A stretch of 64,000 bases of DNA from Minisyncoccota bacterium (GCA_041651415.1 JBAZJH010000002.1:20474-84473), one strand, 5' to 3'. Positions 2,981 to 60,103 are shown, counted from the stretch's first letter. Made by a program: numbers and translations. Notes: a model not told the origin generated them from the sequence alone.

Positions 2981-3009
2981 TTGACAAGTTTGTTAAAGAA
3001 TGCTATATT
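2981..3009 (+). promoter_or_regulatory. Sigma70-like promoter (TTGACA-17-TATATT)
   Basis: Consensus -35 ttgaca, 17-nt spacer, -10 tatatt, about 40 nt upstream of the small ORF at 3050. Confidence 0.6.
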
Positions 3010-3049
3010 TGAAAAAGAGTTTTAAACAATCAAATAAACGGAGGAGAAA

Positions 3050-3208: not shown

Positions 3209-3242
3209 AAACAAACTTCACAATTTATAAGAATTATTTGTC

Positions 3243-3280
3243 ATCCCGCGAACATTTTTATGTTTGCGGGATTTTTATTT
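3243..3280. terminator. Intrinsic terminator shared by the small peptide gene and nrdJ
   Basis: Stem tcccgcgaacat / atgtttgcggga followed by tttttatttt. Confidence 0.8.
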
Positions 3281-3291
3281 TCAAAATACTT

Positions 3292-9231: not shown

Positions 9232-9244
9232 AAAACCAATAAGA

Positions 9245-9338
9245 TTTACTCCGACCAAAGTCGGAGTTTATTAAATCTTAGCCGCTTCAAACCCCTTAAG
9301 ATAGCGCGCGGGGTTTGAAACTGAGATTTAATAAAAAA
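9245..9338 (+). repeat. Composite structured repeat E, copy 1 (hairpin + conserved tttattaaatcttagccgc ... gagatttaataaaaaa)
   Basis: Shares its 5' 40 nt and 3' 16 nt with 35681-35770; the inner hairpin differs; followed by a terminator hairpin. Confidence 0.6.
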
Positions 9339-24929: not shown

Positions 24930-26396
24930 TTAAAAAACAAATTCGTCTCCTTTTTCAACAGAAAAGTCCGAAAGAAGTTCAAGAACCAAACCGCATTCTT
25001 TGCCCGCATCCACTTGATTGATATCGCGTTTGTCGCATTGAAGATTGGTGATTTTTGCCCGACCGAGAGTTTCGCCGTTTCTTTTGACTTCCACTATGAC
25101 ATTTCTTTTAAAGATTCCTTCTTCCACTCTGCCACCAACGGTTTCTTTGCTGCCGGCGCGGCTAAAAGTGGCGAGAACGGAAAGACGGCTCAAGCGATTT
25201 TTGGAAGAATTAAAAGCGGAAATTTTTTCTTCCAGAGATTTAACAAGCTCGTAAATTATTTTGGAAGAAATGATTTCAATCTGGCAGGAACGCGCCAAAT
25301 TTTCGGCGGCTTTATTGGTTTTGACATTAAAGCCGACGATAATGGAACGGGAATTCAAAGCTTCCTTAACATCGCCATCCGTGATATCGCCGACTTCTTT
25401 GTCGATTATTTTGAAGTTTAAATCTTCTTTAGCGGGAAGGGCGGAAATAACTTGGAAAAGAGCTTCGAGAGTGCCAGAAGTGTCGGCTTTTAAAATCAGA
25501 TTGATTTTTTCACCATCTTCCGAAGAAACGATTTTGTTTTTCAAATCAGCCGCGCGATTTTTGGGAGAAACAGAAATTTCAAGAAGGTCGGCGAATCCGG
25601 CCATAAATTTATCGCCCACCTTGGGAAGATTTTCAAAACCGACAATTAAAGCGGGGCTGGAAGGAAGAAGAATATCAACTTTTTCTCCTTTGAAGTTTTC
25701 AAGGATTTTTATTTTGCCGGAAGCGCTTCCGGAAACAATGTCCTGACCGACTTTCAAAACGCCGTCTTTCAAAATAACAAAAACTTCATTGCCGCGATTT
25801 TTATCAAGTTTGGATTCAATAACAAAGCCTTCGGCGTTTTTTTCCGGATTATAGGAAAAGTTTTCCATTTCGGCGACAAGCAAGACAAGGTCAAGAAGTT
25901 CGCTAATGCCCTCGCCTGTTTTAGCGGAAATCGCCTGCCAGCTGATGTTGCCGCCAAAACCTTCAAGAAAAACTTCGTTTGTAAGAAGGTCCTGCTTGGC
26001 TTTTTCGATATCGGCGTTATTTTTGTCTATTTTATTGATAGCCACCACAAAAGGAGTTTTAGATTCCTTAAGAATAGAAATTGATTCTTTAGTTTGGGGT
26101 TTAACGCCATCGTCAGCGGCCACAACAAGAATAGCAAAATCAGCCACATCGGCGCCGCGGGAACGCATTTTGGTAAAAGCTTCATGCCCGGGAGTGTCGA
26201 TAAAAGTGATTTTTTTGCCGTTATGCTCGATTTCATAAGCTCCAACGGATTGAGTGATGCCGCCGGCTTCCTTTAAAGCAACGCCGGTTTTCCTGATGTA
26301 ATCAAGAAGCGAGGTTTTACCATGGTCAACGTGGCCCATCACAACAACAACCGGAGGCCGAAGCTGCAAATTTTCTTTTTTATCTTCATTAGTCAC
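24930..26396 (-). CDS. infB: Translation initiation factor IF-2 (N-terminally short form)
   Basis: GHVDHGKT, DTPGH and NKID G-motifs; 488 aa starting essentially at the G domain. Confidence 0.9.
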   Translation of the reverse strand: MTNEDKKENLQLRPPVVVVMGHVDHGKTSLLDYIRKTGVALKEAGGITQSVGAYEIEHNGKKITFIDTPGHEAFTKMRSRGADVADFAILVVAADDGVKPQTKESISILKESKTPFVVAINKIDKNNADIEKAKQDLLTNEVFLEGFGGNISWQAISAKTGEGISELLDLVLLVAEMENFSYNPEKNAEGFVIESKLDKNRGNEVFVILKDGVLKVGQDIVSGSASGKIKILENFKGEKVDILLPSSPALIVGFENLPKVGDKFMAGFADLLEISVSPKNRAADLKNKIVSSEDGEKINLILKADTSGTLEALFQVISALPAKEDLNFKIIDKEVGDITDGDVKEALNSRSIIVGFNVKTNKAAENLARSCQIEIISSKIIYELVKSLEEKISAFNSSKNRLSRLSVLATFSRAGSKETVGGRVEEGIFKRNVIVEVKRNGETLGRAKITNLQCDKRDINQVDAGKECGLVLELLSDFSVEKGDEFVF

Positions 26397-42950: not shown

Positions 42951-43382
42951 TCAAAAACTTTTGAACCAGATGGATTCTATTTTTCTTTTGCCGTTATAAG
43001 TGAAGTGGTGAGTTTTGGGAACGCGTTTTTCAGAGCTGTTACTGACAGCCTTATTTTTTCCAAGATAGAATCCAATGTGCTTGTGGCTGTTTTTCTCTTC
43101 CCAAATAAGGACGCTTCCCTCTTTCGGAGTTTTTATTCTTTTCCAGCCGGAGTTTTCGAGGTCTTTTACAGTTCCTTCAACAGTGGCGTGAAGATTATTC
43201 ATTTGGCCGAAGATTTTTAAGACAGAGGAAACAAAAAAAGCGCAGGATAATTTTCCGTTTTTTAAAATATCGATTTTTTTAGAATCGGTTTTAGCAAAAG
43301 CATTTTGAAAAGAATTAGCGCCAACAGCTTTTTTTATAAAAGAAAGATAAGTTAAAAAATTAAGAGAAACTAGTTTTTTCAT
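42951..43382 (-). CDS. Secreted NlpC/P60-like (papain-fold) putative cell-wall hydrolase
   Basis: Signal peptide; Cys (GKLSCAFF), a downstream His (HKHIGFYLG) and a third polar residue in NlpC/P60/CHAP-like spacing; start trimmed to MKKLVS because the track ORF runs through tRNA-Gly. Confidence 0.4.
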   Translation of the reverse strand: MKKLVSLNFLTYLSFIKKAVGANSFQNAFAKTDSKKIDILKNGKLSCAFFVSSVLKIFGQMNNLHATVEGTVKDLENSGWKRIKTPKEGSVLIWEEKNSHKHIGFYLGKNKAVSNSSEKRVPKTHHFTYNGKRKIESIWFKSF

Positions 43383-43559: not shown

Positions 43560-43722
43560 CCACAAATAAATTCCCTGACGGAAATTTTTCTCGGCCCCGC
43601 CTCGGGGTATTCGCCTTTTTCCCTTCGGGAAAAAACTCACACAACCCTCCGGCTTTCAATTTCTTTCTTATATCCATAAATGGATATAAGAAGCGACATA
43701 AAATTAGCTGAAGCAAATTTTG

Positions 43723-43794
43723 TGTCCCCGGAAGGAATTGAACCCTCATCACGAGCTCCGCAAGCTCGTGTCCTATCCATTGAACGACGGGGAC
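43723..43794 (-). tRNA. tRNA-Arg (anticodon reads GCG; isotype needs confirmation)
   Basis: Acceptor GTCCCCG/CGGGGAC, D-arm GTTC/GGAC, anticodon stem CGAGC/GCTCG with loop TTGCGGA, T-loop TTCAATT. Confidence 0.72.
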
Positions 43795-43810: not shown

Positions 43811-44290
43811 TTAAAAACCGAGGAATTTGGATATTTCTTCAAAGAGAGAACTCTTATGTTCTATCTCGGCAAGGTAATTATTAAGAAAAACTCGGATTTT
43901 TTCAATATCTTCGGTTTTAGCCGGAATTCGAAAGTTAAAAATAGAAACATTATTTTTTAAAAAATAAATGAAGCTTCTCTTACCTTCGTTTTTATCTATG
44001 GAAAAACTTTCAAAGGAATCCCAAGGATAAAGGCGGTTTTCTATTTTTAGGCCTTCATTTCCGAGAGAAAAATCATATTCTTCGCGATTGGAATTAGCCA
44101 AGAAAAAGAGAGAGACTTCCGATAGAATTATAAGCAAGGCAAAAAGAAAGTTTTTTTGCCAAAGAGAAAAAGCGACGAGAAGAAGCGCGGCAATAACAGA
44201 AAGCCAAAGCCAAGAAGAATTCTCGGAGGAAAATTCAAATTCCGGAGCGCGCCATTCGATTTTTTGATTATTTTCAGAAAAAGATGTCAT
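43811..44290 (-). CDS. T4SS-operon small membrane protein (2 TM + cytoplasmic domain)
   Basis: Last gene of the overlapping minus-strand operon; 159 aa. Confidence 0.55.
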   Translation of the reverse strand: MTSFSENNQKIEWRAPEFEFSSENSSWLWLSVIAALLLVAFSLWQKNFLFALLIILSEVSLFFLANSNREEYDFSLGNEGLKIENRLYPWDSFESFSIDKNEGKRSFIYFLKNNVSIFNFRIPAKTEDIEKIRVFLNNYLAEIEHKSSLFEEISKFLGF

Positions 44291-45387
44291 TCTTCTATTT
44301 TCCCGCCGGCAGATCTAATTTTTTCAGCAAAAACTCCGGCAATAACCCTTTCGCTAACATTTCTGCCACTAGGAAATTCTTCAATATAAAATATTCCAGC
44401 ATCGCCAACTTTTGGTCCTCCACCAGTTGTAGAAATAGTTGTCATCATAGAACAGCGGTAATAACCGCCAGTAACAGATTTGCATGTTCCTTTTGCTTCA
44501 GCCGAAACGCTACCGTAATCTTTTGAAGCAAAAGAGAAAGTGAGATTATCGCCGGATGGCAAAGAAAGCGGAGCGCCAACGCCATCATAAGTATATTCAC
44601 TAGCCATTCTATATTTGCTTTCTTCGATAAGAAAATTTTTTAGTTCAGTTTTTATCTGTTCATTGGCGGCTTCGGAAAAAGGGAGGCCAAAATCATTAAT
44701 AATACTCGCATCACTATAAGCGATAGTTGATTTCCAAGATGCTTCACCGGAACTTCCAGTTTCCGGAATATCAACGTTATAAGTGCCGTCTTTTCTAATA
44801 GTAATTCTATCAACTCCGTCTCTTCCAGGATTGATGCCGATAATAACTAGTCTATTTCCCTCGGCCGCGGAAGTTTTTGCAATATTTATTTGATTTTCTT
44901 TTTTGGAATATTCTTCTTTTAAAGTATCTTCAAATTTTTTAGAGCTTTCGGAAGAAGAACCGCCTGACGACCCGATGAGACTGGAAGAAGAAGTGAGGCA
45001 AGACCCAGAAGTGTCTCGGCTAGACCAAAAATTGACAGATTTTAAAATACAAGGATTGATAGTGTCCAAAATAACGATTGAGCCGAAAAGAAGAAGAACG
45101 CCGTAAACAACTTGAGTAAGGCCGTCTTTTGCGTCACCAACCATTGATTCATTAGCAGCGCCAAGAATATATTTGACGCCATGAAAGATAATCATAAAAA
45201 AAGCGACCAAACCAACGGCAGCCAGAGCAAATTGGAAGATAGCGGCGACAAAAGAACCAAGGTCGGGAGAAGAACCGAGAGTGAAACCGGGAATAGGAGT
45301 GGTGATTTCATAAGTAACTTTCGCAAAAGCCAAGAACGGAAAAAATAATGGGGAAAAAAGGAAAATATTTTTAAGAATTTTTTTCAT
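44287..45387 (-). CDS. VirB2/TrbC-like pilin-fold protein with a Ser-rich linker and ~230-aa C-terminal domain
   Basis: Signal peptide followed by two hydrophobic helices (GSFVAAIFQFALAAVGLVAFFMIIF ... VVYGVLLLFGSIVILDTI), as in T4SS pilins, then a low-complexity linker and an extra domain; 366 aa. Confidence 0.5.
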   Translation of the reverse strand: MKKILKNIFLFSPLFFPFLAFAKVTYEITTPIPGFTLGSSPDLGSFVAAIFQFALAAVGLVAFFMIIFHGVKYILGAANESMVGDAKDGLTQVVYGVLLLFGSIVILDTINPCILKSVNFWSSRDTSGSCLTSSSSLIGSSGGSSSESSKKFEDTLKEEYSKKENQINIAKTSAAEGNRLVIIGINPGRDGVDRITIRKDGTYNVDIPETGSSGEASWKSTIAYSDASIINDFGLPFSEAANEQIKTELKNFLIEESKYRMASEYTYDGVGAPLSLPSGDNLTFSFASKDYGSVSAEAKGTCKSVTGGYYRCSMMTTISTTGGGPKVGDAGIFYIEEFPSGRNVSERVIAGVFAEKIRSAGGKIEE

Positions 45388-45781
45388 TTTGATTTTTTTC
45401 TTTTTTATTGCCGGCAGCTTCTTTTTTATCTTCCCCTTTTTTAGAGGCGATTTCTGTCGCTTTTTTCAGAACCGGATTATTAGAGAGAGAAATGGCGATA
45501 ATAACAGTGACGGTTTTGACCGGCAAGAGATTGATAAAAGGGATAAATTCAATAAGACCTCCCGCCAGAAACCAAGCGCCTCTCGCTCCTTTTATTATAA
45601 GCCAGAGGTAAACAAAACCAAAAATAAAAGTATTGATAAGCCAAGTGAAAACAACAGACAAAGGGGCGACGGGCGGAACCAAACTAAAAGCATAAGAAAG
45701 AAGCTCGGCAGTGTCGGCAAAAAGGCAGATGAGAATTAAAATAATGCTTTCAGGAAGGGAAAACTTTTTTTGTTCATCCAT
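45371..45781 (-). CDS. T4SS-operon polytopic small membrane protein
   Basis: 136 aa; overlaps its neighbours by 8-17 nt (translational coupling). Confidence 0.5.
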   Translation of the reverse strand: MDEQKKFSLPESIILILICLFADTAELLSYAFSLVPPVAPLSVVFTWLINTFIFGFVYLWLIIKGARGAWFLAGGLIEFIPFINLLPVKTVTVIIAISLSNNPVLKKATEIASKKGEDKKEAAGNKKEKNQNEKNS

Positions 45782-47495
45782 TTTTATCCTTATTTAAAAT
45801 CTCTTCAGGGTTAGTGGTGATAATCTGATGTTCAAAAAAAGAAGCGACAATTTCAACGGCCACATGCTTTAAACCGGCAAAGAAAAGACCATTGCCGACT
45901 TCAGTTTCCACCAGGAAATTCTTTTCCGTTTCGGAAAGAGCAAAAATTTTTGAGAGTATTTCAGCGGAAGTGTTGGACTGTTTTAGAAGAAGCTGGAGAG
46001 AGGAATTGGTGACAATAGGGCGACCAAAAGAAGAGTTTAGAAAATCCTCGACATCTTGAGTGATAGTCGTGATGCCAAGAAAATATTTTCTGGCTCTTTT
46101 AACAAGGCCGAAAAGGAAGCTCGCGGAAGCTTCGTGTTTCATCATAATCCAAGCTTCATCAATAAAGACAAGGCGTTTTTTGAATTCGGAGCGGATAAGA
46201 TTCCAAATAAAACTCAAAACAATATGCATGGCGATGGGGCGAAGCTCTTCTTCCAAATCACGAATAGAAAAAACAACCAAGCGATTTTTGACATTGATAT
46301 TGGTCGGTTTGTTAACAAAGCCGGCAAAGCTGCCGCTCGTGTAACGATAAAGCTTGGCGGCCAGGTCTTTTCCGCCATCCATATTGTTCAGAACAGCTTC
46401 CAAGTCGCTTAAAAGAGGCGCGGGAGCGAAAGAAAAATCTTTTTCAGGAGTGATTTCTCTGGAAGCATAAGTTTCAGTAATAGCTTTATCGAGAAGAGAT
46501 TCTTCGGAAGGAGTGATATCGCCCACCATCAATTTTATCAAAGTGGCGAGATTAACAATGTGGGATTTAAGAGTTTCAGCCGCATCTTCGTCCTCAGGAA
46601 CAGCAGGAACATCAAAAGGATTAATATTGTCTTCGGAAGTCAAAGAAATTTTTATATGAGAACCGCCGACGGCTTCGGCAAGATTTTCATATTCATTTTC
46701 CGGGTCAATAACTAAGACATCGGAGCCAACCATTAAGGAACGGAGAATTTCCATTTTGGCAAAATAAGATTTTCCGGAACCGGATTTGGCAAAAATAACC
46801 ATATTGGCGTTTTCGAGAGAAAAGCGGTCAAAAATAACAAGAGTGTTATTGTGTTTGTTGATGCCATAAAGGATTCCTTTATCGGAAGTTAAGTCGGTTG
46901 AAATAAAAGGAAAGAAGGAAGAAATAGGAGAAGAATTAAGCGGAACATTAACTTTGAGCTCGTCGTTTTCCAAAGGAAGAACGGAGAAGAAAGCTTCAGT
47001 TTGCTGAAAAGTCGCCGGTTTGGTGTAAATGAGTTTGCTTTCAAGAAGAAGATTGATTTCTTTTTCAAGGTCATTCAGTTCTTCGACGGTTTTTCCGTAA
47101 AAAGCGATATAAATTCCAACATTAAAGAGCTTTTCCCGCGCTTGTTGGAGAGCATCGCGAAGAGTTTCGACATCCTGATAAGCGGTTTCAAGAGCCGGGT
47201 CGCGAACCATCCCCTTTTCTTCATATTCGTTTATCTGCGCTTCCACGCGAGCGGCTTTTTTTCTAAGATTTTTCAAAGCGATGCCAGTGTCAACGGGATG
47301 AATAAAAATAGAAATATCGACAAGGCGAGGAAGATTGATGATAGGCAAAAACCAATCGCTTGTTATATAACGAGGATAAGAAAGGATAAAAATAGTCCGA
47401 AGAAAATTATTGCCAATTTTGACGTGATTAGGAGAAAGCTCCACAGCCGAAGGAGCAATGACATCTTTTATTTCTTTAAATTTTTCTTGGTCCAT
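45774..47495 (-). CDS. virB4: VirB4/TrbE/PrgJ-family T4SS ATPase, C-terminal part (residues equivalent to ~230-800)
   Basis: Walker A FAKSGSGKSY, Walker B LVFIDEAW, and the RTIFILSYPRYITSDWF block that follows the N-domain in VirB4; its ATG lies in an open frame that continues upstream. Confidence 0.85.
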   Translation of the reverse strand: MDQEKFKEIKDVIAPSAVELSPNHVKIGNNFLRTIFILSYPRYITSDWFLPIINLPRLVDISIFIHPVDTGIALKNLRKKAARVEAQINEYEEKGMVRDPALETAYQDVETLRDALQQAREKLFNVGIYIAFYGKTVEELNDLEKEINLLLESKLIYTKPATFQQTEAFFSVLPLENDELKVNVPLNSSPISSFFPFISTDLTSDKGILYGINKHNNTLVIFDRFSLENANMVIFAKSGSGKSYFAKMEILRSLMVGSDVLVIDPENEYENLAEAVGGSHIKISLTSEDNINPFDVPAVPEDEDAAETLKSHIVNLATLIKLMVGDITPSEESLLDKAITETYASREITPEKDFSFAPAPLLSDLEAVLNNMDGGKDLAAKLYRYTSGSFAGFVNKPTNINVKNRLVVFSIRDLEEELRPIAMHIVLSFIWNLIRSEFKKRLVFIDEAWIMMKHEASASFLFGLVKRARKYFLGITTITQDVEDFLNSSFGRPIVTNSSLQLLLKQSNTSAEILSKIFALSETEKNFLVETEVGNGLFFAGLKHVAVEIVASFFEHQIITTNPEEILNKDKNG

Positions 47496-47515
47496 ATATG
47501 TTAAAAAATAAAAAA

Positions 47516-48211
47516 CTAAACTGAAGAAGGAGACTGGCTGGCAATACTCAAATTCTGCTTTTCGATAGTTTCAGGATTATAAAAATTATAGAAAAGTTCA
47601 AGAAGTTCTTCATTATTCAAAGCAACAGCCCGAAGGCCGATACTTTGAATGCCATCGATAACCTGGTCGCTTCTTTGTTTAAGCTGGCGGAAATTTATTT
47701 TTTTATTTTGGTCCAAACTAAGTTTTGCTTTAGCCGCCGCTTCTTTTTTATTGCCCCAAAAATTAAGTTTGGACAAAAAACCTCCGGCAGGAACAAGATA
47801 AACAGGATTGAAAGGAACGACGACTAAAAACATTTTGTTCATAATATCGTTTTCTTTTACAAAAGTTTTGATAAATTCCTTATATTCAAAAATTTGATTT
47901 TTAAGAAGCTCGTTTTGTTCAACCTTCTCAAGGTTTTCAATGTTTTTGATATAGTTATCAATATTAAATTTTCTGGAATGGACGAGAATCTGGACAGGAA
48001 AATCAAGGGAATTCAAAAAACGCTGGTAGGAGTTTAAAATAACGTTTTTTTCCTCCTCCGACATCAAGTCAAGATTGACGCCAGAAACCATAATAATCTG
48101 GCGGAGACCGCCATCTTTAAGGACAACAACATCTTCTTCAATGTTTTCTATCTTGATAAAATCCTGAGTGGAAGGAGCAGCTTTTGCCATACAATTATTA
48201 TAAAGCACCAA
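47516..48211 (-). CDS. virB4: VirB4 N-terminal domain, encoded separately (frameshifted/split virB4)
   Basis: EDVVVLKDGGLRQIIMVSGVNLDLMSEEEK...FPVQILVHSRK aligns to the VirB4 N-terminal domain (DHIVLLEDGSIMSI..GVAFE...HVSIYAHLVRH); stops 19 nt upstream of the next ATG, in a different frame, with no RBS between. Confidence 0.72.
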   Translation of the reverse strand: MVLYNNCMAKAAPSTQDFIKIENIEEDVVVLKDGGLRQIIMVSGVNLDLMSEEEKNVILNSYQRFLNSLDFPVQILVHSRKFNIDNYIKNIENLEKVEQNELLKNQIFEYKEFIKTFVKENDIMNKMFLVVVPFNPVYLVPAGGFLSKLNFWGNKKEAAAKAKLSLDQNKKINFRQLKQRSDQVIDGIQSIGLRAVALNNEELLELFYNFYNPETIEKQNLSIASQSPSSV

Positions 48212-48291
48212 ATAACAAACACCAAATAAATTACAAAAAACAATGAAGCTTTACGGCCTTACGAACCAACAAACAGCCGCTAAAGTTATCG

Positions 48292-48891
48292 TTAGCGATA
48301 ATCAACACGTTTAGCGGCGACTCTTTCACCGGTGAATTTTTCGATAATGGAATACTGGTCTTTTTTGCGGCGGCGGAAGAAAGAAAAATCTCTTTCGCGG
48401 TCGGTGATAACATTTTTAGTAGTCATCATTTTTTCAGACAAGTCTTTTAAACTGGAACCGGTCGTGATGGGAGAAGCTTCTAATTCCGGTTTTTTGGTGA
48501 TAATGATTTTGGGAGCCGGAATTTTAGCTTGAGGAAGAGGAGCGGCTCTTCTTTCAAAAGAAGGAATTTTTATTTTAGAGACTTTATCTTCCAAATCGGC
48601 CGGAGCGAAAATTTCGTGGCGCCACATAATAACGCGCGGGTTCCAATAAAACTCGAGAGCGGAAACAATAACAAGAGGAAGAGAGCGGCCGCTGATTTTC
48701 AGAAAAGCCAGCCCGGCGGCAGAAGCCCAGAAAAAAACAGCGATAACCAGCCAAAGCCAGAAATTAAGCAGATAAAAAAGTCCCAAACTTATTCCAAAAG
48801 CGGCGGCAAAATAAAAAAATTGCTTTAAAGTAAGCGGACCGACTATTTTGTCTTCGGTGTCTATAAATTGAGGTACCTGAAAAGTGGCCAC
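48292..48891 (-). CDS. PrgI/VirB3-like small membrane protein
   Basis: N-terminus VPQFIDTEDKIVGPLTLKQFFYFAAAFGISLGL matches the PrgI-family signature (VPKDl...fGLTlRQ); two TM helices; immediately upstream of virB4, as in Gram-positive T4SS. Confidence 0.5.
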   Translation of the reverse strand: MATFQVPQFIDTEDKIVGPLTLKQFFYFAAAFGISLGLFYLLNFWLWLVIAVFFWASAAGLAFLKISGRSLPLVIVSALEFYWNPRVIMWRHEIFAPADLEDKVSKIKIPSFERRAAPLPQAKIPAPKIIITKKPELEASPITTGSSLKDLSEKMMTTKNVITDRERDFSFFRRRKKDQYSIIEKFTGERVAAKRVDYR

Positions 48892-48974
48892 AATAAAAAA
48901 GTTAAAAGTTTATAAAGTTAAAAGGACTATGAGTAAATTATAACCCAAAAACAGAAAAAATTTATTTTTTTGTT

Positions 48975-50102
48975 TTATCCTCGAAAATCAACAATATTGC
49001 CTTTTAAGGAAGGACCGGAAGGAGGAACCAATTTTTCCTTAGAAGGAGGCGCGGGCGGAGGAAGAGGTTTTTCTTCTTTTTTAAGAGGCGTGGGAGCGGG
49101 AATAGAAACAGAACCAACGGAAACGGATTTAATTTTAGAAAAAGGGTCAACGGGACCGGAAGGAAAACCGCTATAATCAATCGCCTGCCTATTTTCTTGT
49201 TCGGTTTTAGCGGTTACAGGAGAAACTATTTTTTCTTTTCTTTCTTCGCGGCGAGTTTTGCCGATTTCAACTCGGGCAACAACCGCTTCTTGTTTTATCT
49301 CTTTAGAGAGAGGAGAAGAACTCATTTCAGGGACAGCCTTTTTTTCAACCATACCGGAACGAAAAACCGGTTCCACTTTCGATTCTTCGTGAATCATAAA
49401 AGGAGAAACGGGACGGATAAAATCTTTTTGAATCGGCGCAATTTTTGAAGAAAGATTATCAGCCAAAGGAGGAGCAATCGGTTTTATAAAAGGAGCGGAA
49501 GGCAAAGGAGAAAACGGAGAAGGTTTGGAAATAATTTGTTCCATAGGTTTTGGAACAGGGAGAGAAGAAGCCGGTTTAGGAGACAAAAAAGGAGAAAGAG
49601 GCGCGGGGGCGGGAGAAATTTGCTTGTTAAAAACAGGAGGGATGGGTTTTAATGACTTATCAAGACCAACAGTTTGAGAAGCATTTTGTTCCGAAAAAAC
49701 GATTTTATTCAAAGGAGAGACAACGGGAACTTTTTTCAGATTGACGACATTTTCCGGAGGAACCGGGGAAGAAGGCATTTTCGACTGGCCGATTTTATCT
49801 ATTTCCCCTTTCAAGCTCGCAAAAATATCACGATTTAAAGTTGCGGAAATTTTTTTGGCGTCTTCTACGGGAACAGGAAGACCGGAGGCAACTTCTTTTT
49901 CCAAATCAGAAAGAGGAATAAAACCCATAGTAACGCGGCCAAAAATTTTTTCCAGGACTGCTGATTGACCTTCATTAAGATTAAAATTCTTTTCCAAATT
50001 ATCTATTTTCTCAAAGATATCATAATCAAAAAGCGCGTCCTGGAGGAGGGAAGGAAGTTTTGCAAGACGTTCGTCTATTTGAATTTTGGAAAGCTTAAGC
50101 AT
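48975..50102 (-). CDS. Proline-rich T4SS-operon protein
   Basis: 375 aa, P/S/K-rich low-complexity middle, no TM helix. Confidence 0.55.
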   Translation of the reverse strand: MLKLSKIQIDERLAKLPSLLQDALFDYDIFEKIDNLEKNFNLNEGQSAVLEKIFGRVTMGFIPLSDLEKEVASGLPVPVEDAKKISATLNRDIFASLKGEIDKIGQSKMPSSPVPPENVVNLKKVPVVSPLNKIVFSEQNASQTVGLDKSLKPIPPVFNKQISPAPAPLSPFLSPKPASSLPVPKPMEQIISKPSPFSPLPSAPFIKPIAPPLADNLSSKIAPIQKDFIRPVSPFMIHEESKVEPVFRSGMVEKKAVPEMSSSPLSKEIKQEAVVARVEIGKTRREERKEKIVSPVTAKTEQENRQAIDYSGFPSGPVDPFSKIKSVSVGSVSIPAPTPLKKEEKPLPPPAPPSKEKLVPPSGPSLKGNIVDFRG

Positions 50103-50108
50103 CTTTCA

Positions 50109-52454
50109 TTATTTTTTTTCTTCTTTTTTTTCTTCGCCTTTTTCTTCTCCTCCTTTCTTCTCTTCTCCAAAATCATCAGAACCAGCAGAGTTTAAAGACT
50201 TTAAAATGTATTTACGAAGTTCCGAATTCACATCTCCACCCTCTTCTCTTTTTTTATTAATAGCATTAAGAACTACTCTATTTTTTGAAAAATCAGAAGT
50301 TTTTATAGAATCCTCAAAATCTTTTGGAGCCAGACCAGAGATAGCTAAAAGAGTTCTATTAGCCATAACGGAACGGTTTTCAGCAGAAGCCTTTTTGACG
50401 ATATTGCTATATTCTTTCGGTTTTAATTTAGAAATAGCGCGATAAGCGGCCTGTTTGCCTCTTTTATTCCACATATCTTCAGTCATCCCCGATTGAAGAC
50501 CTTTTTCCAGAATATCAAACCAAGAGCCTTTTTGAATGTCGGCAGTTTTCATAGTGGATAAAGCTTTAACCAAAGATTCTTCGAAATCAGTAATGACATC
50601 GTTAAGTTCGTCATTTTTCTTTTCATCAACATTTACCAAGTTTTTAATTGATTCCGAAACACTCTTTGCTGTTTCATCTTTTTTATCTTTGGCAAGAGAA
50701 AGGAGAATGTTTGAGGAAGTTATTTTATCGACATCACCGCCGTATTTTTGGAACAAAAGAGGGTCGATATATTCCGGATACTTATCAAGTTTGCCTTTTT
50801 CAGCCAAAAGTTCCTGAAGAGCAGCTTTTTTAACCGGATCGCGCGCCATGCGGGCAGAGGCGGAAATCTGTTCAGGGGAAAGATTCTTTGCTTCTTTTTT
50901 ATAGTTTTCAAAAATAGTGTCGGAAGTTCGTTTTTTGAAACCAAGAACGGTTTTGGCGGTAAGCAAGCCAAGGCGACTGGCTTTTTCGCTTTTTATTTCT
51001 CCTTTTGCCCAGTCTTCCATCCTTTTTCCAACACCGGAACGACCAATAGTTTGACCGTAAGCGAAACGACCAGTGCCAAGAACAGCTTTAGAACGAGTGC
51101 GTCTTAACCAATTAGTGGTTCCATCTTTTACCCAATTTGCCCAACTCATAGTTCCTTTGGCGCCATTAATACCAAATCTATCGGCAACCATCATACTGCC
51201 GAAGAGAAAACCAAGAACGACAATCATATTGCCGATTTGGCCCAAACCATTAACAATCATTATTTTACCGCTTAAAGCAGCTTCCGCGCCGGAGGAAGAA
51301 GCGCCGGAAGAAACGGAGCCGCCAGTCAGCGATTGAATAGAAAGGAAAATAAAAAAACTGGAGACGGGAGCAAAAAAAGTCCAGCGGAGAAAACTATTCC
51401 ACCAAGCGCCGGAATAATTTATTTTCGGGAAAATTCCCGTAAACCAGGCAAGAGGGGCGAGAATAAGAAGGAAAGAAAGAAAAATAAATCTGTAAATAAG
51501 CATAATAGACAAACCAATAAGGAAGATGGCGGAAAAAGCGGTAAAAAGAACGGAAAAAAGAAGAGTGGAAATGCCGACCATAAAAGAAGCAGAAAGGGCG
51601 GAGGCCTTTTGTCCGGCAGATAAAGAAGAAAAATCAACTTCATACAGCTTATTTATATCAAGGAGTTTAGAAAAAGCGGAAGAAATATCAGGCTGACTGA
51701 TAAGAGCATTGTTTAAAAAATAAGCGGTAACAATGCCGGCAAAATCAATCAGAACGCCGCAAATAACAAGAGAAAAATTTATCAGGATAGCAGTTTGAAT
51801 GAATTTAAAAAGCAAGGACTGCATACCATATTGTTTTTGCCGGATAATAGTGGCAAAAGAAATAACGAGGATGCCCAAGACAAAACCAAGGTTGGCAAAA
51901 TCACGGGCGAAAGACCAGCCGTTTTTAATAATGGGCATTTTCATCAGGCGAGAATTCAAACTAAAAGCAAAATCAATCAACCAAGAACCGAAAATAAAAA
52001 CAACGTTCGTGATATAAGAGAGAACATTGAGGAAAAAACCGAAAACACCCTCCATAGCAAAACTAGCAAAACCAGAAATAAAACCTTCGCCAGTATATTC
52101 AGTTTTTAAATCACCACTTTCACTTATTGTATCTTTTCTAGAAACTCCAGAGCCTAAAAGATCATCATCCGTAGAAATTTTTTTTCCTTCAGGATAACTG
52201 TAATAATCATGCCCAGTTGAAATAGCTTCTCCAACACCCGTTGAATAGGAGTAATCCCAAGCATTTTTTTCTTTATTAAAGGTGGCATCTTTTGGAACAC
52301 CAGAAGGACAAGAAGGAAAGGAAGAACAAGTCTGACCATTAGTTGGAGTAGCAGTTTCTTGCGCCAAAACAAAATTGAAGGAAAAAGAAAAAATAACAAA
52401 AAAGAAGGAGAGAAGAGCGGTTTTTTTCCAATTATTTTTTAGCCAAAAAAACAT
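50109..52454 (-). CDS. VirB6/TrbL/ConG-like polytopic membrane protein with a Cys-containing N-terminal ectodomain and a lysine-rich C-terminal tail
   Basis: Signal peptide, ~140-aa extracytoplasmic domain, at least 6 TM helices, then a ~350-aa hydrophilic tail; 781 aa; this layout and operon position match VirB6-like subunits of monoderm T4SS. Confidence 0.55.
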   Translation of the reverse strand: MFFWLKNNWKKTALLSFFFVIFSFSFNFVLAQETATPTNGQTCSSFPSCPSGVPKDATFNKEKNAWDYSYSTGVGEAISTGHDYYSYPEGKKISTDDDLLGSGVSRKDTISESGDLKTEYTGEGFISGFASFAMEGVFGFFLNVLSYITNVVFIFGSWLIDFAFSLNSRLMKMPIIKNGWSFARDFANLGFVLGILVISFATIIRQKQYGMQSLLFKFIQTAILINFSLVICGVLIDFAGIVTAYFLNNALISQPDISSAFSKLLDINKLYEVDFSSLSAGQKASALSASFMVGISTLLFSVLFTAFSAIFLIGLSIMLIYRFIFLSFLLILAPLAWFTGIFPKINYSGAWWNSFLRWTFFAPVSSFFIFLSIQSLTGGSVSSGASSSGAEAALSGKIMIVNGLGQIGNMIVVLGFLFGSMMVADRFGINGAKGTMSWANWVKDGTTNWLRRTRSKAVLGTGRFAYGQTIGRSGVGKRMEDWAKGEIKSEKASRLGLLTAKTVLGFKKRTSDTIFENYKKEAKNLSPEQISASARMARDPVKKAALQELLAEKGKLDKYPEYIDPLLFQKYGGDVDKITSSNILLSLAKDKKDETAKSVSESIKNLVNVDEKKNDELNDVITDFEESLVKALSTMKTADIQKGSWFDILEKGLQSGMTEDMWNKRGKQAAYRAISKLKPKEYSNIVKKASAENRSVMANRTLLAISGLAPKDFEDSIKTSDFSKNRVVLNAINKKREEGGDVNSELRKYILKSLNSAGSDDFGEEKKGGEEKGEEKKEEKK

Positions 52455-52457
52455 TTT

Positions 52458-54851
52458 TTATTTAAGATAGCCGTTAGTTTCTAAGCTGTTTATTTTTGAA
52501 TTAAGAGCGTCAAGATAAGATGTTTTATTTTCAGGATGATTAAAATAAACAAGATTAATTGAAAGACCTAAGAAGTTCTGACTGGCGGAAAAAGGAGCGA
52601 TGGTGGTTTTTATATTTCCGGAAGAAACAATCGTCACAGCTGAACCGCTATCCGTTTTTTGATTAAGATTAATCGGAAGTTTGTTGGTTATATCAAAATT
52701 ATTACCACTTTCACTTCCTAAGCCAGCGGAAAATAAATTCAGAAGTTCCGCTCGTTCTTTTTGAGAATAATCCAAATCGGTTTCAGAAACATCCGTTTTC
52801 CAGATATCGGCGGATTTAGAAAGAAGATTATTTTTAAGAATCGGAAGATTAGAATTTGAAGAATCAACATCTCCCAGATAGAGATAAGCTTTATTTAATT
52901 CAGAGACAACAGCTTCTTTATTCTGCCGAAAAGAAATCTTCCGACTTAAAGATTTACTATCAAGAGAAAGAGAGTTAAAAGAAGAAATCTTTCCACTAAG
53001 AGAAGAAAGATAATTGTCAAAATTATCAGGGTGAAGATAGAAAAAATTAGAAGCAACCGTAGAAGAAAGAGATAAGCCAAGATAATTTCCATAACCGGAA
53101 GTCGTTTTATTAAATGTGTATTTTATTTCATTATTAAAGAAATTGAATCCAGACAGAGAGAGGGAGACTGCGTTCGTATAATAAATTTTCGTTGTTTTTT
53201 GCCTCATTCCCGTGCCGGAAACAGTTTCTTCAAAACAAGAGATATCCTTTGATATGGTCTTATTATCAACTTTTAAACCATTACCAACATTAAGATTTAG
53301 AGGAAGAGTGTTAAGCAAATCAAAATTTTCACTTTCTTCATTAATGGAAGAGTCGCCGGCCAAAAAGAGATTGGAAAGTTCTTCTTTTTGAAGAGAAGAC
53401 GCCAATATTTCAGCCTCAGTTTCCGAGCCGGAAGAAGCGGATATTTCATCATTAAGCTTTTGAAGGATTGTCTGAAGTTTCTTTTTAAGTTCATCCACTT
53501 TTGCTATTTTGACGCTTCTTTCACTTACGGGAAGAAAATAGAAAATATCTTCAGAACATATTTGATTGCTGGAGCCGCCGGTATCTTTATCTTTAACTGA
53601 ATATTTCAAATTAAGGGAAAGATTTATGTCTTCAAGATAAAGAATAGCTCTTTTAACTTCGTTAAAAGAAGAAATTTTATTTTGTTTATAACTGCCAAGC
53701 GAAGAATAAAGAGAATCGTAATTAGAAGAGGAATCAAGAGAAGAGCTCAAATCAAGATTGGTGGTGTTTTCTATTTCTTCTTTGATAAGATCATCGATAC
53801 TTTCCACGTTTTTCGGAACAGAATCATAGGCGGAAGAAAAATCATTATCAGAACTTTCATTAAAAATAATTTCAGAAATATCTTCTAAAGAAACACTACC
53901 AAACTCGCCGAGGGAAAAATTTGCTCCGTCAATATCGCCAATATTAAGAGAAAAAGTACCTAAACTTTCCCCGTTTAAAATACCTTGAGCCACACCCATG
54001 ATTCCGGAGACGCCACTGCCTAAGAGCTTATTAAAAACAGATGAAGAAATAGCACTGACGAAGCTCGCAAAATCATCGGCATTAACAATATAATCAATAT
54101 CAGAAGTAACGGCGCGAGAAAGAGTGTCACCAATAGTTTTGCCGGGAGTAGTACTGACTTCATTAAGACAAAATTCTTCTCCCGCTTCGTTAGTAGCTGT
54201 TTTCAGACATTTTTTTGTGGAAAGAAATCCCCCGCCGGCAAGCGCTTCGTTTTTGGCGGCTTCGGCTTTAGCGACGGCTTTGCGGTCAACTATGTCTTTA
54301 GCAATAAAAGATTTTCCGTAATAATTATTCTCAGGGAAAGTGTTTTTAGAAAAACTTTCCCAGTCAAATTGGCTGTATTGTTCATTATATTTTTCTTCAA
54401 CAGTTTTCTCCTTGGTTTCTGAAACAAAAGAACTGCCGCTTAATTGAGATTTTATAGCCGAGTCAAAACTATTTCCGGAGCTAAAGAAACCGCTTGATTC
54501 AAGACCTTGAATAGCTTCTTTTTTACCCAAAGAGTAATTTTGGTTAAGAAAACTTTCCCAGTTAGTGACAAATTTAGGTTCACTGCCGCCAGCGATGCCT
54601 GTGACCATCTGGCTAACAAGAGCGTCGAGCAAGCTTCGCTTAAGATTTTCGGTGGTAAGTTTAAAGATAAACTCCATAATCATTCTTGCTAAGCTCCCGG
54701 TAGTGGCGCCGGAAGTGATGCCGAGAGGCCCCAAAACGCCCGGATTTGTTTCAAGAGTCGGAACAGCGGCAAAAGAAGAAGCAGGGAGGCAAGAAAATAA
54801 AAATAATAAAACAAGAGAAGCGGCGGAAGATTTATAAAAAAAGTTTTTCAT
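52458..54851 (-). CDS. Large secreted Ser/Asn-rich protein (797 aa), possibly a T4SS-associated surface/adhesin protein
   Basis: Clear signal peptide; low-complexity S/N/D-rich sequence. Confidence 0.58.
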   Translation of the reverse strand: MKNFFYKSSAASLVLLFLFSCLPASSFAAVPTLETNPGVLGPLGITSGATTGSLARMIMEFIFKLTTENLKRSLLDALVSQMVTGIAGGSEPKFVTNWESFLNQNYSLGKKEAIQGLESSGFFSSGNSFDSAIKSQLSGSSFVSETKEKTVEEKYNEQYSQFDWESFSKNTFPENNYYGKSFIAKDIVDRKAVAKAEAAKNEALAGGGFLSTKKCLKTATNEAGEEFCLNEVSTTPGKTIGDTLSRAVTSDIDYIVNADDFASFVSAISSSVFNKLLGSGVSGIMGVAQGILNGESLGTFSLNIGDIDGANFSLGEFGSVSLEDISEIIFNESSDNDFSSAYDSVPKNVESIDDLIKEEIENTTNLDLSSSLDSSSNYDSLYSSLGSYKQNKISSFNEVKRAILYLEDINLSLNLKYSVKDKDTGGSSNQICSEDIFYFLPVSERSVKIAKVDELKKKLQTILQKLNDEISASSGSETEAEILASSLQKEELSNLFLAGDSSINEESENFDLLNTLPLNLNVGNGLKVDNKTISKDISCFEETVSGTGMRQKTTKIYYTNAVSLSLSGFNFFNNEIKYTFNKTTSGYGNYLGLSLSSTVASNFFYLHPDNFDNYLSSLSGKISSFNSLSLDSKSLSRKISFRQNKEAVVSELNKAYLYLGDVDSSNSNLPILKNNLLSKSADIWKTDVSETDLDYSQKERAELLNLFSAGLGSESGNNFDITNKLPINLNQKTDSGSAVTIVSSGNIKTTIAPFSASQNFLGLSINLVYFNHPENKTSYLDALNSKINSLETNGYLK

Positions 54852-54855
54852 AAAA

Positions 54856-55596
54856 TTAGAAAGTGATGTTATTTTTCAGCAAATAATCATTGATAGAATC
54901 TTTCAGCTCCAGGAATTTGGCGTCAAAATATTCATCGGACTTAACAGCAAGAAGAGTCAAAAGCGGGTCTTGTTCATAATTTTGAAGCTGTTTTAAAATA
55001 AGAAGCTTGGCGGAAAGAAGAGAAATCTCTTCTTTATGGAAAGAAACAACGCTTTTAGGAACGGAAAGGGCGTAAAATTCTTTAATCATTTTTTCATAAG
55101 AAAAAATCAGAGAAGCAAGGGCGTTAGAAACCGTGGTTTCAGGGTTGAGACTGTTTACAGAAGAAGAATTATTCATGAGAATTTCCTGAAACCCGGAAAA
55201 ATAAGAGGAGACAGCTTTGACACTAATGTCTTCCGAAATTTTTAAACTGCCGTCTTTAATTTCCGGCTTAATCGATTCCGGATTAAAGTTTTTTAGAGAA
55301 GTTTCAACGGCTTCGTTTATCAATGTTTTATCGGGAAGCTTGATTACGCCGACACCGGAATTTTCAATGTTTTCTTCGGCCACTTTTTGAATAACATTTT
55401 TAGCCAATTCATCGGTAAAATTTCTGGAAGAAGCGGGAGAGTTTGATTCAAAATTACTGATTTTATTCAAGGTTTCGTTTTGCTTCTGTTTTTCCAGATA
55501 ATCGGAGCCGATAATATAAAAAAACAAAAGCGCGGAAAGCCCGATTAAACCAAAAACAAGCGGGCCTAATATTTTTTTGTTGGAAAATAAATTCAT
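54856..55596 (-). CDS. Membrane-anchored T4SS-operon protein (VirB8-like topology)
   Basis: First gene of the operon; one N-terminal TM helix and a ~200-aa extracytoplasmic domain. Confidence 0.52.
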   Translation of the reverse strand: MNLFSNKKILGPLVFGLIGLSALLFFYIIGSDYLEKQKQNETLNKISNFESNSPASSRNFTDELAKNVIQKVAEENIENSGVGVIKLPDKTLINEAVETSLKNFNPESIKPEIKDGSLKISEDISVKAVSSYFSGFQEILMNNSSSVNSLNPETTVSNALASLIFSYEKMIKEFYALSVPKSVVSFHKEEISLLSAKLLILKQLQNYEQDPLLTLLAVKSDEYFDAKFLELKDSINDYLLKNNITF

Positions 55597-55615
55597 TGCC
55601 CAGAAATATAAGGGA

Positions 55616-55624
55616 ATTATATCA
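55616..55624 (-). promoter_or_regulatory. Extended -10 promoter (TGaTATAAT) for the T4SS-like operon
   Basis: Reverse complement reads aaaaaTGaTATAAT, 19 nt before the ATG of 54856..55596; two direct repeats tcattagNaatttttaatt lie just upstream at 55665-55708. Confidence 0.5.
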
Positions 55625-55701
55625 TTTTTGAGGGCGAAAAATAAGGGGAAAAATAAAAATGACGAATTAAAAATTTCTAATGACTAACTAATTAAAAATT
55701 A

Positions 55702-56529: not shown

Positions 56530-57495
56530 TTAACCGCAACCGCACATAGTGGTTGCCGGGTCCCAAAGAGCATTAGGAAAACTCCGGCAGACACTATTCA
56601 AGCAACCCAATTGAATTGTGCAAGCCGCGCCGCCAATGCCGCAATCATAAACAAAATTACAACCGTGAACATTGCAGAATTGCCCGCAATTACAGCAATA
56701 ATTAGGGGAAGAAAAACCAACAACAGGATTGCCGGGAGCCAAGTCCTTATAGCAAAAAGGAGGAACGCCGATCCAAGCCGCTTCGGCGGTCTTAAAAAAA
56801 TTTCCGAATAAGTCCAAGAAGCTTAATTTCTTTTTTAATAATTCTTCGCGCTGTTCCGCTTTCAATTCCGGAATTTTATTAAGTTTTTCTTTCAAACTTA
56901 AAAATTCATCGTCGGAAAGACCGGCAACAGATTTATAAAAAGAAGCGAATTTTTCCAGAAAACTATAAATTTTTTCTTCGGAATCAAAAGAAGTTTTTTG
57001 CGAAGAAGAGATAAAATTTTGTTCAACCATCAAATCTTGAATTCTTGAGAGATGGCTTAAGTAATAATCCGGCCAAAGATTGGAAAAAATTTCTTCTTCC
57101 GACAAGGCCGGCTTTATCTCCGGCTGGTTTTGAACGGAAGGAAGAGAAGAGGCGCTACTTTCGGAAAAGACGGAAGTAAAAGGGGAAGAAACGGGATTAA
57201 GGAGGTCGGAAACAGATGAATTATCTTCAGTTTTGGGACTGGCAAGTTTTTCGACAAAAAGTTTCAAGTCGGTTAATGATTTTTCGGAAGAGTTTTGATT
57301 GTCAGAAAAAAGAGAAGGAAAAGTTTGCGGGGAAACTTCAGGAAAAGAAGCCGGTTCAGAAACGATATTATTAGCCGGAGCTTCGGAGGGGTTTGCTTTA
57401 AAAAAAAGAAAACCGAGAGTGGCTAAAAATCCGAGAAAAATGACTATTAAAGAAGAGCGGATGCTCATAGGTTTATTATAAATCCCAAATGACAA
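56530..57495 (-). CDS. Membrane-anchored protein with an acidic/Ser-rich linker and a C-terminal ~80-aa cysteine-rich domain (14 Cys)
   Basis: N-terminal TM helix; C-terminal CYKDL...CCNCGQFCNVHGCNFVYDCGIGGAACTIQLGCLNSVC...CGCG. Confidence 0.6.
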   Translation of the reverse strand: MSFGIYNKPMSIRSSLIVIFLGFLATLGFLFFKANPSEAPANNIVSEPASFPEVSPQTFPSLFSDNQNSSEKSLTDLKLFVEKLASPKTEDNSSVSDLLNPVSSPFTSVFSESSASSLPSVQNQPEIKPALSEEEIFSNLWPDYYLSHLSRIQDLMVEQNFISSSQKTSFDSEEKIYSFLEKFASFYKSVAGLSDDEFLSLKEKLNKIPELKAEQREELLKKKLSFLDLFGNFFKTAEAAWIGVPPFCYKDLAPGNPVVGFSSPNYCCNCGQFCNVHGCNFVYDCGIGGAACTIQLGCLNSVCRSFPNALWDPATTMCGCG

Positions 57496-59410: not shown

Positions 59411-60103
59411 ATTTGTCTTAAAGTTTTAGCGAGGGCGGTTAAGAAATTAGAAGATCCTCTTTTTTTAGGGGTTTTTTTAGCGGGTTCCCTGTTCTTTTCA
59501 AAAGCGGTTTTCGCTTTAGGAGAAAACGATAAAAATTATCTAAATTTAGGAGGTCCAGTTAATAATACAGAAACAGCCCTTTTAAGCCAAGAAGGGGCTT
59601 TGTTTTCAAAAGACTACAACGAAGAAGGAGTAACTGAAGAAACAGAAGAAAAAATAGTTTTAATAAACGAGGCGGAGGCCTTAGGGAGCGTGCCGATTGA
59701 CACGGAAAGTGATTTCAGAAAAATCGGTTCTTATAAACCAAATCTGGCGGGATATTTTAAAATGCCGACAAACGGATTCAATTCCGGAGCTTTACATAAT
59801 TACAACGCGGTAGATATCGCGAACGCTTGCGGAGCGGGAATCGTGGCGGCGGCGGACGGCGTGGTTATAGAAGAAAATTCCGGAAATTGGAACGGAGGAT
59901 ACGGCTCTTTTATAAAGATTGAGCATCCAAACGGAACAAAAACGCTTTATGCGCATAATTCGGAAAATTTGGCGGCAACCGGAGATATCGTGAAACAAGG
60001 AGAAGAAATAGCAAAAGTGGGGAAAACAGGAAACGTAAGCGGGCCGACCGGATGCCATTTGCATTTTGAAGTGCATGGAGCGGTTAATCCGTTTGTAAAA
60101 TAA
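59411..60103 (+). CDS. M23-family (LytM-like) metallopeptidase, secreted; start codon uncertain
   Basis: HNYNAVD ... YAHNS ... GCHLHFEV (HxxxD and HxH zinc motifs); a signal-peptide-like segment starts right after the divergent uvrD start; no in-frame ATG/GTG/TTG downstream of the uvrD start, and the track start lies 279 nt inside uvrD. Confidence 0.68.
   Translation: MCLKVLARAVKKLEDPLFLGVFLAGSLFFSKAVFALGENDKNYLNLGGPVNNTETALLSQEGALFSKDYNEEGVTEETEEKIVLINEAEALGSVPIDTESDFRKIGSYKPNLAGYFKMPTNGFNSGALHNYNAVDIANACGAGIVAAADGVVIEENSGNWNGGYGSFIKIEHPNGTKTLYAHNSENLAATGDIVKQGEEIAKVGKTGNVSGPTGCHLHFEVHGAVNPFVK

Follow-up and report, generated by a model that had tools for sequence, protein, structure and literature searches.

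The type IV secretion systems (T4SSs) of the Patescibacteria (candidate phyla radiation, CPR) are the only T4SSs on which the survival of the bacterium encoding them has been shown to depend, and the only monoderm ones suspected of making a pilus. Transposon sequencing (Tn-seq) established that Southlakia epibionticum cannot grow as an epibiont without its T4SS cluster and pilin array; the composition of this system is Gram-positive-like, its pilins are unusual, and neither a coupling protein nor a relaxase can be recognized (Wang et al. 2023, PMC10633639). Of 3,035 Patescibacteria genomes, 2,417 encode a VirB4, and these proteins form a monophyletic clade inside the mating-pair formation class MPF_FATA, with genes for TrsD, PrgI/VirB3, VirB6 and VirB2-like proteins near virB4 and few VirB8 or VirB1 matches (Quinonero-Coronel et al. 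2025, PMC12102498). The same study found relaxases in only 103 genomes and VirD4-like genes mostly far from virB4, and it lists KsgA, DnaA and DnaN as frequent virB4 neighbours in Paceibacteria. A 2025 review (PMC12857230) treats these systems as a monoderm class of their own, possibly pilus-building and possibly used for uptake from the host, and a 2026 preprint (bioRxiv 10.64898/2026.06.21.733656) reports tubular structures, possibly T4SS pili, at the contact between a cultivated relative and its host. Here we describe a ten-gene operon of this type in 64,000 nucleotides (nt) of DNA from a Minisyncoccota bacterium (GCA_041651415.1, JBAZJH010000002.1:20474-84473), hereafter called the window.

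We consider it probable (about 0.85) that the operon encodes a chromosomal T4SS of the Paceibacteria, belonging to a CPR-specific lineage that arose from monoderm MPF_FATA conjugation machines and lost their DNA-processing half. In such a machine VirB4 and TrsD, working on PrgI and VirB6, would build a pilin conduit, the host would be contacted by the C-domain of the pilin and by the secreted protein g2, and macromolecules other than conjugating DNA would be moved. The encoded set consists of a TrsD-like plus VirB4 energy module, a PrgI/VirB3 anchor, an extended VirB6-like channel protein, a VirB2-like pilin and five family-less envelope proteins that are conserved or lineage-specific. The VirB4 is of the MPF_FATA type, the TrsD-like gene is adjacent to it, the PrgI, VirB6-like and pilin genes are nearby, and a relaxase is absent from a context that is fixed, both in the 64 kb and within 10 kb on either side in 80 relatives. 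A preliminary description of this DNA had likewise proposed a chromosomal T4SS-like machine of CPR bacteria and not a conjugative element, and synteny, substitution ratios and the lack of mobility genes in the window support it.

Gene order and secretion core

Open reading frame (ORF) calls on the window gave ten tightly packed minus-strand genes, g1 to g10, which span 43811-55596 (Table 1). This is the ~11.8 kb minus-strand operon of the preliminary description; all ten ORFs were recovered, and the topologies that it gave agree with our transmembrane (TM) counts, which come from a simple hydropathy analysis. The intergenic distances range from -17 to +100 nt overall: they are 3-6 nt among g1, g2, g3 and g4, about 80-100 nt on both sides of the PrgI gene and 20 nt between g6 and g7, and successive genes from g7 to g10 overlap by 4-17 nt. 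The GC content of the operon (0.34-0.40) matches that of the flanks, with no compositional break.

An extended -10-like motif (TGaTATAAT) can be read in the sequence in front of g1, where a promoter at about 55620 had been proposed. The motif is present, as a consensus match only; a scan for two-hexamer sigma-70 promoters and terminators produced no more sites than shuffled controls. At the other end, no terminator separates g10 from a tRNA-Arg gene, which is possibly co-transcribed with the operon. Rfam detected only tRNAs in the window.

Table 1. Coordinates and properties of the operon genes and of other features in the window; dN/dS is the ratio of nonsynonymous to synonymous substitution rates between the window and its close relative L005 (Nei-Gojobori)
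Feature	Position	Strand	Length (aa)	Properties and basis	dN/dS
g1	54856-55596	-	246	Bitopic, with one membrane span (residues 13-31); first operon gene; no family	0.09
g2	52458-54851	-	797	Secreted, Ser-rich (15% Ser), signal peptide, no other TM; no family	0.26
g3	50109-52454	-	781	Extended VirB6-like polytopic protein; signal peptide and ~six TM	0.24
g4	48975-50102	-	375	Pro-rich (13.9% Pro), no TM; alignment; no family	0.27
g5	48292-48891	-	199	PrgI/VirB3-like, two TM, C-terminal extension; Pfam PF12666	0.079
g6	47516-48211	-	231	TrsD-like, stand-alone VirB4 N-terminal domain; likely start ATG 48190 (224 aa)	0.046
g7	45774-47495	-	573	VirB4 ATPase, C-terminal three quarters; NCBIfam, Pfam, PrgJ alignment	0.023
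g8	45371-45781	-	136	Membrane protein, ~four TM; directly 3' of VirB4 gene; no family	0.30
g9	44287-45387	-	366	VirB2-like pilin with C-domain; sub-cutoff PF18895 match, ortholog, topology	0.13
g10	43811-44290	-	159	Two-TM protein; Pfam DUF5673, 27.5 bits (cutoff 26.7)	0.11
TyrRS				Housekeeping comparison	0.11
RsmA				Housekeeping comparison	0.14
Extended -10-like motif	55616-55624	-		20 nt 5' of g1 ATG; consensus match only	
tRNA-Arg(GCG)	43722-43794	-		16 nt past g10 stop codon; ARAGORN, Rfam, sequence	
NlpC/P60-CHAP-like gene	42951-43382	-	143	Candidate cell-wall hydrolase, directly after tRNA-Gly, past the two tRNAs	
Peptidase_M23 gene	~59500-60103	+		E 2e-24; between uvrD and comM, ~4 kb upstream of g1	
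Cys-rich protein	56530-57495	-	321	Just upstream of rsmA; no Pfam family	
Large orphan ORF	14725-18318	-	1197	Between PrsW protease gene and leuS; no Pfam match	
IF-2	24930-26396	-	488	Short form	

The ATPase g7 matches the NCBIfam model conju_CD1110, a VirB4-like conjugal transfer ATPase, with 397.7 bits (cutoff 325) over profile positions 185-732 of 752, and Pfam P-loop_TraG with an E-value of 2.4e-27; its Walker A (AKSGSGKS) and Walker B (LVFIDE) motifs are intact. Among the best 120 of 8000 VirB4 homologs, 107 have 565-591 amino acids (aa) and 12 have 786-794 aa, with one 658-aa partial sequence, and the named sources are all Patescibacteria-group or unclassified metagenome-assembled genomes (MAGs) at 63-100% identity. 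They include Paceibacterota, Liptonbacteria, Wolfebacteria, Harrisonbacteria, Doudnabacteria and other Parcubacteria, and the VirB4, the VirB6-like protein and the pilin are 100% identical to proteins of a Candidatus Paceibacterota MAG (MFA5173162.1, MFA5173160.1). The lineage of the operon is therefore Paceibacteria, so that of the CPR/Saccharibacteria-like origin first proposed the CPR part stands and the Saccharibacteria part does not. The placement of VirB4 in the Patescibacteria T4SS clade relies on similarity and not on a tree.

The g6 protein scores 42.8 bits (E 4.9e-11) against the NCBIfam model TrsD (NF041427), far under its cutoff of 200, and covers positions 99-231 of VirB4_plasma and 1-119 of CD1110 (NCBIfam). 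In a fused 790-aa Paceibacteria VirB4, residues 10-215 are 47% identical to g6 and residues 224-786 match g7, and g6 orthologs carry PF26593 (TraC-like). The g6 protein is thus homologous to the TrsD domain but falls outside the curated TrsD subfamily. TrsD homologs have been associated with virB4 in 1,664 cases (PMC12102498).

That VirB4 comes in two pieces was noted in the preliminary description, and the split is real, although it is not damage. Of 79 related loci, 76 encode the N-domain and the ATPase as two ORFs and three as a single fused one; the gap between the two ORFs (5-27 nt) and their relative frame vary from locus to locus, and in two relatives they lie in the same frame with a stop codon between. 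Because the split is so widely kept with varying gap and frame, a frameshift error, a programmed frameshift and a pseudogene were all rejected as its cause. The two-gene TrsD/VirB4 is therefore a stable arrangement like that of TrsD and TrsE.

The anchor protein g5 passes the cutoff of PrgI PF12666 (32.8 bits against 27, E 1e-7). The g3 protein begins with a secreted segment and ends in a helical cytoplasmic domain of ~300 aa, the layout of an "extended VirB6". The VirB6 Pfam profile gives no match to the 781-aa protein itself, and so the assignment depends on structural and transitive evidence; R388 TrwI/VirB6 and Legionella DotA share 9-12% sequence identity with g3, with Foldseek E-values that are not significant. 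We count g3 as the VirB6 homolog near virB4. The earlier label of VirB6/ConG-like is thus kept as VirB6-like, even though the Pfam check failed.

The pilin g9 was described beforehand as VirB2-like with an extra C-terminal domain. It consists of a signal peptide and helical hairpin (residues 1-125), a Ser-rich linker and a variable alpha/beta C-domain (~150-366), and hydropathy indicates the signal peptide and two TM segments. Residues 48-102 match T4SS_pilin PF18895 at 24.1 bits (E 3.9e-5), which is 2.5 under the cutoff of 26.6, and over residues 39-119 the protein shares 45% identity with an ortholog of 106 aa in which PF18895 is present. The pilin assignment is supported by this ortholog and by the topology, while the protein's own PF18895 score is below cutoff.

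Most components had been expected to have no assignable family, and this holds for g1, g2, g4 and g8. The g4 protein, a core component, has no Pfam, NCBIfam or PDB match. It has a conserved ~100-aa N-domain, present in two or three copies in some representatives of the family, and the motifs PFMIHEE, ARVEIG and, at the C-terminus, GN[IV]VD[LF]R within disordered sequence of variable length; the family comprises 280 cluster representatives. Neither g1 nor the g2 protein of the window matched a family in Pfam, NCBIfam or the PDB, including ortholog profiles against PDB sequences. The g2 protein has a conserved N-terminal domain (~57-296) and a variable C-terminal part, and some of its homologs carry C-terminal PKD, F5/8-type-C (discoidin), Big_7 (Ig-like) or BNR modules. 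No Pfam, NCBIfam or PDB match was obtained for g8. The g10 protein matches DUF5673; its orthologs are confined to close relatives (L001, L005-L007), with one match in 80 loci, and it is specific to the version of the operon found in this lineage.

Conservation, selection and the pilin C-domain

Conservation was assessed with hidden Markov models (HMMs) based on the proteins of the window plus a few of their orthologs, run against the six-frame ORFs of 80 loci from one-genome-per-species contigs, many of which are truncated. VirB4 was matched in all 80, TrsD in 79, PrgI in 76, the pilin in 71, g4 in 65, the VirB6-like protein in 63, g2 in 55, g1 in 39 and g8 in 37; for the neighbours, the numbers are 50 (rsmA), 31 (uvrD) and 10 (comM). 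The order (uvrD|comM)-rsmA-g1-g2-VirB6-g4-PrgI-TrsD-VirB4-(g8)-pilin, on one strand, is nearly invariant across these species-level loci, and where g4 occurs it always lies between the VirB6-like gene and PrgI. One relative (L003) has a minimal version, namely rsmA, VirB6-like, g4-like, PrgI, fused VirB4 and a short pilin, with yidC-rnpA-rpmH-dnaA-dnaN after them, in agreement with the location near the origin described in PMC12102498. At 2853-5699, upstream of rsmA, L003 encodes a 948-aa UvrD ortholog with an intein (Intein_splicing); the 598-aa UvrD of the window has none.

The operon of a 66%-identical relative (L002) has additional small genes. A PDDEXK_3 nuclease-like gene and a 23S_rRNA_IVP (four-helix-bundle) gene, at 7944-8357 and 8938-9318, flank PrgI inside the operon, and a third such gene, 23S_rRNA_IVP, is found downstream (17276-17632). 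These resemble small selfish or defence-type elements, whose insertion the operon seems to tolerate.

The dN/dS ratios in Table 1 compare the window with L005 (GCA_028709185.1). The values do not exceed 0.30, and therefore all ten genes are maintained by selection, which is purifying. Constraint is much stronger on the cytoplasmic motor than on the housekeeping enzymes, and it is weaker on the envelope parts. Amino-acid identity to L005 is 97% for VirB4, 82% for RsmA, 77% for TyrRS and 68% for the VirB6-like protein. The operon is a vertically inherited, selected machine and not an integrative and conjugative element (ICE).

The pilin C-domain is variable. It is divergent in relatives that have a 97%-identical VirB4, and full-length g9 homologs number only six among 5.8 billion clusters; in these the N-module is nearly invariant and the C-domain variable. 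The strains L005 and L006 have about 20 differing positions over 12.5 kb, versus about 260 within ~1 kb. The divergent stretch is L005 12500-13500 (equivalent to ~44290-45010 in the window) and takes in the pilin C-domain and the beginning of g10. Between the two strains, the pilin dS is 0.035 in the N-module and 0.73 in the C-domain, where dN is 0.40. This jump in dS indicates that recombination between near-identical strains exchanged the C-domain for a divergent allele. A diversity-generating retroelement is an unlikely source of the variation; there is no reverse transcriptase in the window, and dS rises together with dN.

Long pilin extensions are common. At least 100 residues follow the pilin module in 39 of the 66 complete pilin ORFs of the 80 loci, and the extensions reach 411 residues; we found no mention of them in the text of PMC12102498. 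One could tentatively imagine the pilin as a modular host-recognition protein, in which a VirB2-like polymerisation module would display on the pilus a fast-evolving C-domain that is exchanged by recombination. Together with the C-terminus of g2 this domain might set which host cell is recognized, and g4, g1 and g2 might be unrecognised core subunits of a monoderm pilus-forming T4SS. We regard this picture as possible, though speculative, and the swapped C-domain as a candidate determinant of host range.

Flanking genes and possible accessories

Pfam scans covered the ten operon proteins and 40 other ORFs of the window. The latter are housekeeping genes, including those for class II ribonucleotide reductase, RecG, LeuRS, TsaD, IF-2, RbfA, UvrA/B/C, TyrRS, RsmA, UvrD and ComM, and they also include a two-component system and a sigma factor of the extracytoplasmic function (ECF) type. 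No relaxase, VirD4/type IV coupling protein (T4CP), VirB11 or integrase was detected in the 50 ORFs, which agrees with the absence of mobility genes and the core-gene flanks reported at the outset. HMMs for the pCF10 T4CP, relaxase and integrase, which have limited sensitivity, also had no match in the 10-kb flanks of the 80 relatives. An adjacent mobility gene would have made the locus an ordinary ICE, and none was seen in either search.

Two peptidase-like genes lie near the operon. The 143-aa ORF past the two tRNAs has plausible catalytic Cys and His motifs and matches NlpC_P60 with E 2.3e-4 and 21.5 bits (cutoff 23) and CHAP with 18.9 bits, also below cutoff; it is present only in the closest relatives and is a possible VirB1-like accessory. 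The 229-aa ORF that the ORF finder reports at this gene runs through the tRNA and is too long. A homolog of the M23 peptidase is located ~8 kb upstream of virB4 in 15 of the 80 related loci, and the gene may represent either core synteny or a partner in peptidoglycan remodelling.

The 321-aa protein just upstream of rsmA combines an N-terminal TM with a Ser/Pro-rich region and a Cys-rich C-domain; 12 Cys fall within its final 78 residues. In L002 the homologous gene (1673-2593) is part of the T4SS cluster, where a g1-like and a g2-like gene flank it, and the protein may be a movable accessory of the T4SS. Farther away, the 1197-aa ORF is one of the large orphan proteins that are typical of CPR genomes. 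The IF-2 lacks the long N-terminal region of typical bacterial IF-2, which fits the genome and protein reduction in CPR bacteria.

Proposed function and comparison with known systems

Established T4SS biology suggests how the proposed machine would work. A hexamer of VirB4/TrsD would dock on PrgI and VirB6 and extract the pilin from the membrane, and the pilin would then be assembled into a pilus or a conduit through the monoderm envelope. How variable they are, and which domains they contain, suggests that the pilin C-domain and the secreted g2 are exposed at the surface and make a strain-specific contact with the host cell. Across this contact the machine may move proteins or host-derived macromolecules. 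Because there is no T4CP and no relaxase in the 64 kb, we do not consider it to be a conjugation system.

Several points weigh against this interpretation. Half of the proteins (g1, g2, g4, g8 and g10) have no assigned role. No VirB8-like component was found in the operon by sequence match, with g1 as a bitopic candidate, and no convincing VirB1-like component was found apart from the weak NlpC/P60 candidate and the distant M23 peptidase. Alignment by hhalign of deep CPR family profiles with single pCF10 proteins returned no VirB8, PrgF or PrgK match, a comparison that had no power, as PrgI against PrgI also failed. A 240-aa C-domain on a VirB2-type pilin might not fit the packing of a filament and could be cleaved off. 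The essentiality of the T4SS is known for one Saccharibacteria species only. Finally, the absence of T4CP and relaxase applies to 64 kb, and most Patescibacteria genomes have VirD4-like genes elsewhere (PMC12102498).

Some of these data can be read in other ways. The operon might import DNA or RNA from the host or the environment, as Helicobacter ComB or archaeal Ced do, and so feed a cell unable to make nucleotides; this is a sub-case of the proposed T4SS that differs from it only in substrate and direction. ComB has VirB2/3/4/6 without a T4CP, VirB11 or relaxase, the same reduced set as the operon. Uptake would also suit the partial matches of VirB4 to the DNA-import ATPases CedB (E 9.6e-13) and CedD and the conserved upstream neighbours comM and uvrD; however, the CedB and CedD matches are far under their cutoffs and reflect the shared VirB4 fold, and the adjacency of comM, uvrD and rsmA may be plain core-genome synteny. 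ABY1-class loci adjoin comF, recG and radA (PMC12102498), the cultivated relative of the 2026 preprint (bioRxiv 10.64898/2026.06.21.733656) is reported to feed on host RNA, and the FEMS review speculates on uptake from the host (PMC12857230). Yet deletion of comEC in S. epibionticum ends competence and not viability, whereas the T4SS is essential (PMC12857230, PMC10633639), so that essentiality does not come about through ComEC-dependent transformation. There is also no recognizable nucleic-acid-binding component in the operon, and nucleic acid import seems to us somewhat unlikely. An organelle that serves adhesion only, that is, a pilus or surface fibre with variable binding domains that translocates nothing except its own subunits, is less probable still. 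Such a fibre would need no substrate-recruiting T4CP, and none is in the window; it would also accord with the large pilin C-domain exchanged between strains, the long extensions of relatives' pilins and the PKD, discoidin or Ig modules of g2 homologs. On the other hand, CPR bacteria already own type IV pili for adhesion (PMC10633639, PMC12857230), and the extreme conservation of VirB4 and the retention of a VirB6 channel with a large cytoplasmic domain would fit a translocon equally well or better.

The remaining explanation, an ordinary ICE or its decaying remnant with the split VirB4 as a pseudogene, we reject as extremely improbable. VirB4, PrgI and VirB6 do have homologs among the conjugation proteins of Gram-positive bacteria, two tRNA genes, a classic integration site, lie beside the locus, and VirB4 is spread over two reading frames. 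But the tRNAs do not adjoin the operon in the more distant relatives L001-L003, the same gene order adjoins rsmA in up to 50 of the 80 loci, and the split is kept with different gaps and frames while the Walker motifs are intact. VirB4 is under stronger constraint than TyrRS and RsmA, and, as indicated above, the 64 kb contain no mobility genes. Nor were the other marks of an ICE found: a relaxase and T4CP were absent from the 50 window ORFs, and an integrase or excisionase and element boundaries were likewise missing, there being no recombinase, no GC break and a conserved core synteny.

The closest relatives of the proposed T4SS are those of the Patescibacteria clade (PMC12102498; SEML1_0006-0019, PMC10633639). 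Both are chromosomal, with a VirB4 closest to MPF_FATA, a TrsD-like protein, PrgI/VirB3, VirB6 and a VirB2-like pilin, with no relaxase or T4CP nearby and, as reported for Paceibacteria, with KsgA/RsmA as a neighbour. The Saccharimonadia have an array of short divergent pilins, whereas the operon at hand has a single pilin gene with a 240-aa variable C-domain. It also differs from the described systems in its conserved Paceibacteria-specific g1, g2, g4 and g8 and in having no lysozyme or peptidase gene inside.

Enterococcus pCF10 Prg/Pcf, the MPF_FATA prototype, shares PrgI-like and PrgJ/VirB4-like proteins and the monoderm lack of VirB7/9/10/11, and g7 is 26% identical to PrgJ residues 225-795 (E 3e-41). 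However, pCF10 has a fused VirB4, the T4CP PcfC, the relaxase PcfG, the hydrolase PrgK, the VirB8-like PrgL/PrgD and LPXTG adhesins, and has no pilin. PcfC, PcfG, PrgK, PrgL/PrgD and the adhesins were not found at the operon, and the PrgH profile comparison was not significant. Staphylococcus pGO1 Trs (TrsD plus TrsE) also has the VirB4 N-domain as a separate gene immediately upstream of the ATPase gene; unlike the operon, it resides on a conjugative plasmid that encodes a relaxase and a T4CP. ComB, as noted above, does without a T4CP and VirB11. Both ComB and Ced are T4SS-derived and work without a relaxase (Ced is mentioned in PMC12102498); ComB has its own diderm core ComB7-10 and Ced its CedA/A1/A2, sets that did not turn up at the operon, where no profiles specific to them were run.

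In conclusion, our interpretation coincides with published knowledge (Wang 2023; Quinonero-Coronel 2025), and the locus is a clean and complete Paceibacteria example that leaves the general picture unchanged. To the described systems it adds the conserved family-less g1, g2 and g4, pilin extensions that are common and one extension that was swapped by recombination. The leads that it offers are the fixed gene order that includes these three family-less proteins, the swapped pilin C-domain and a highly conserved ATPase beside fast-evolving surface parts.

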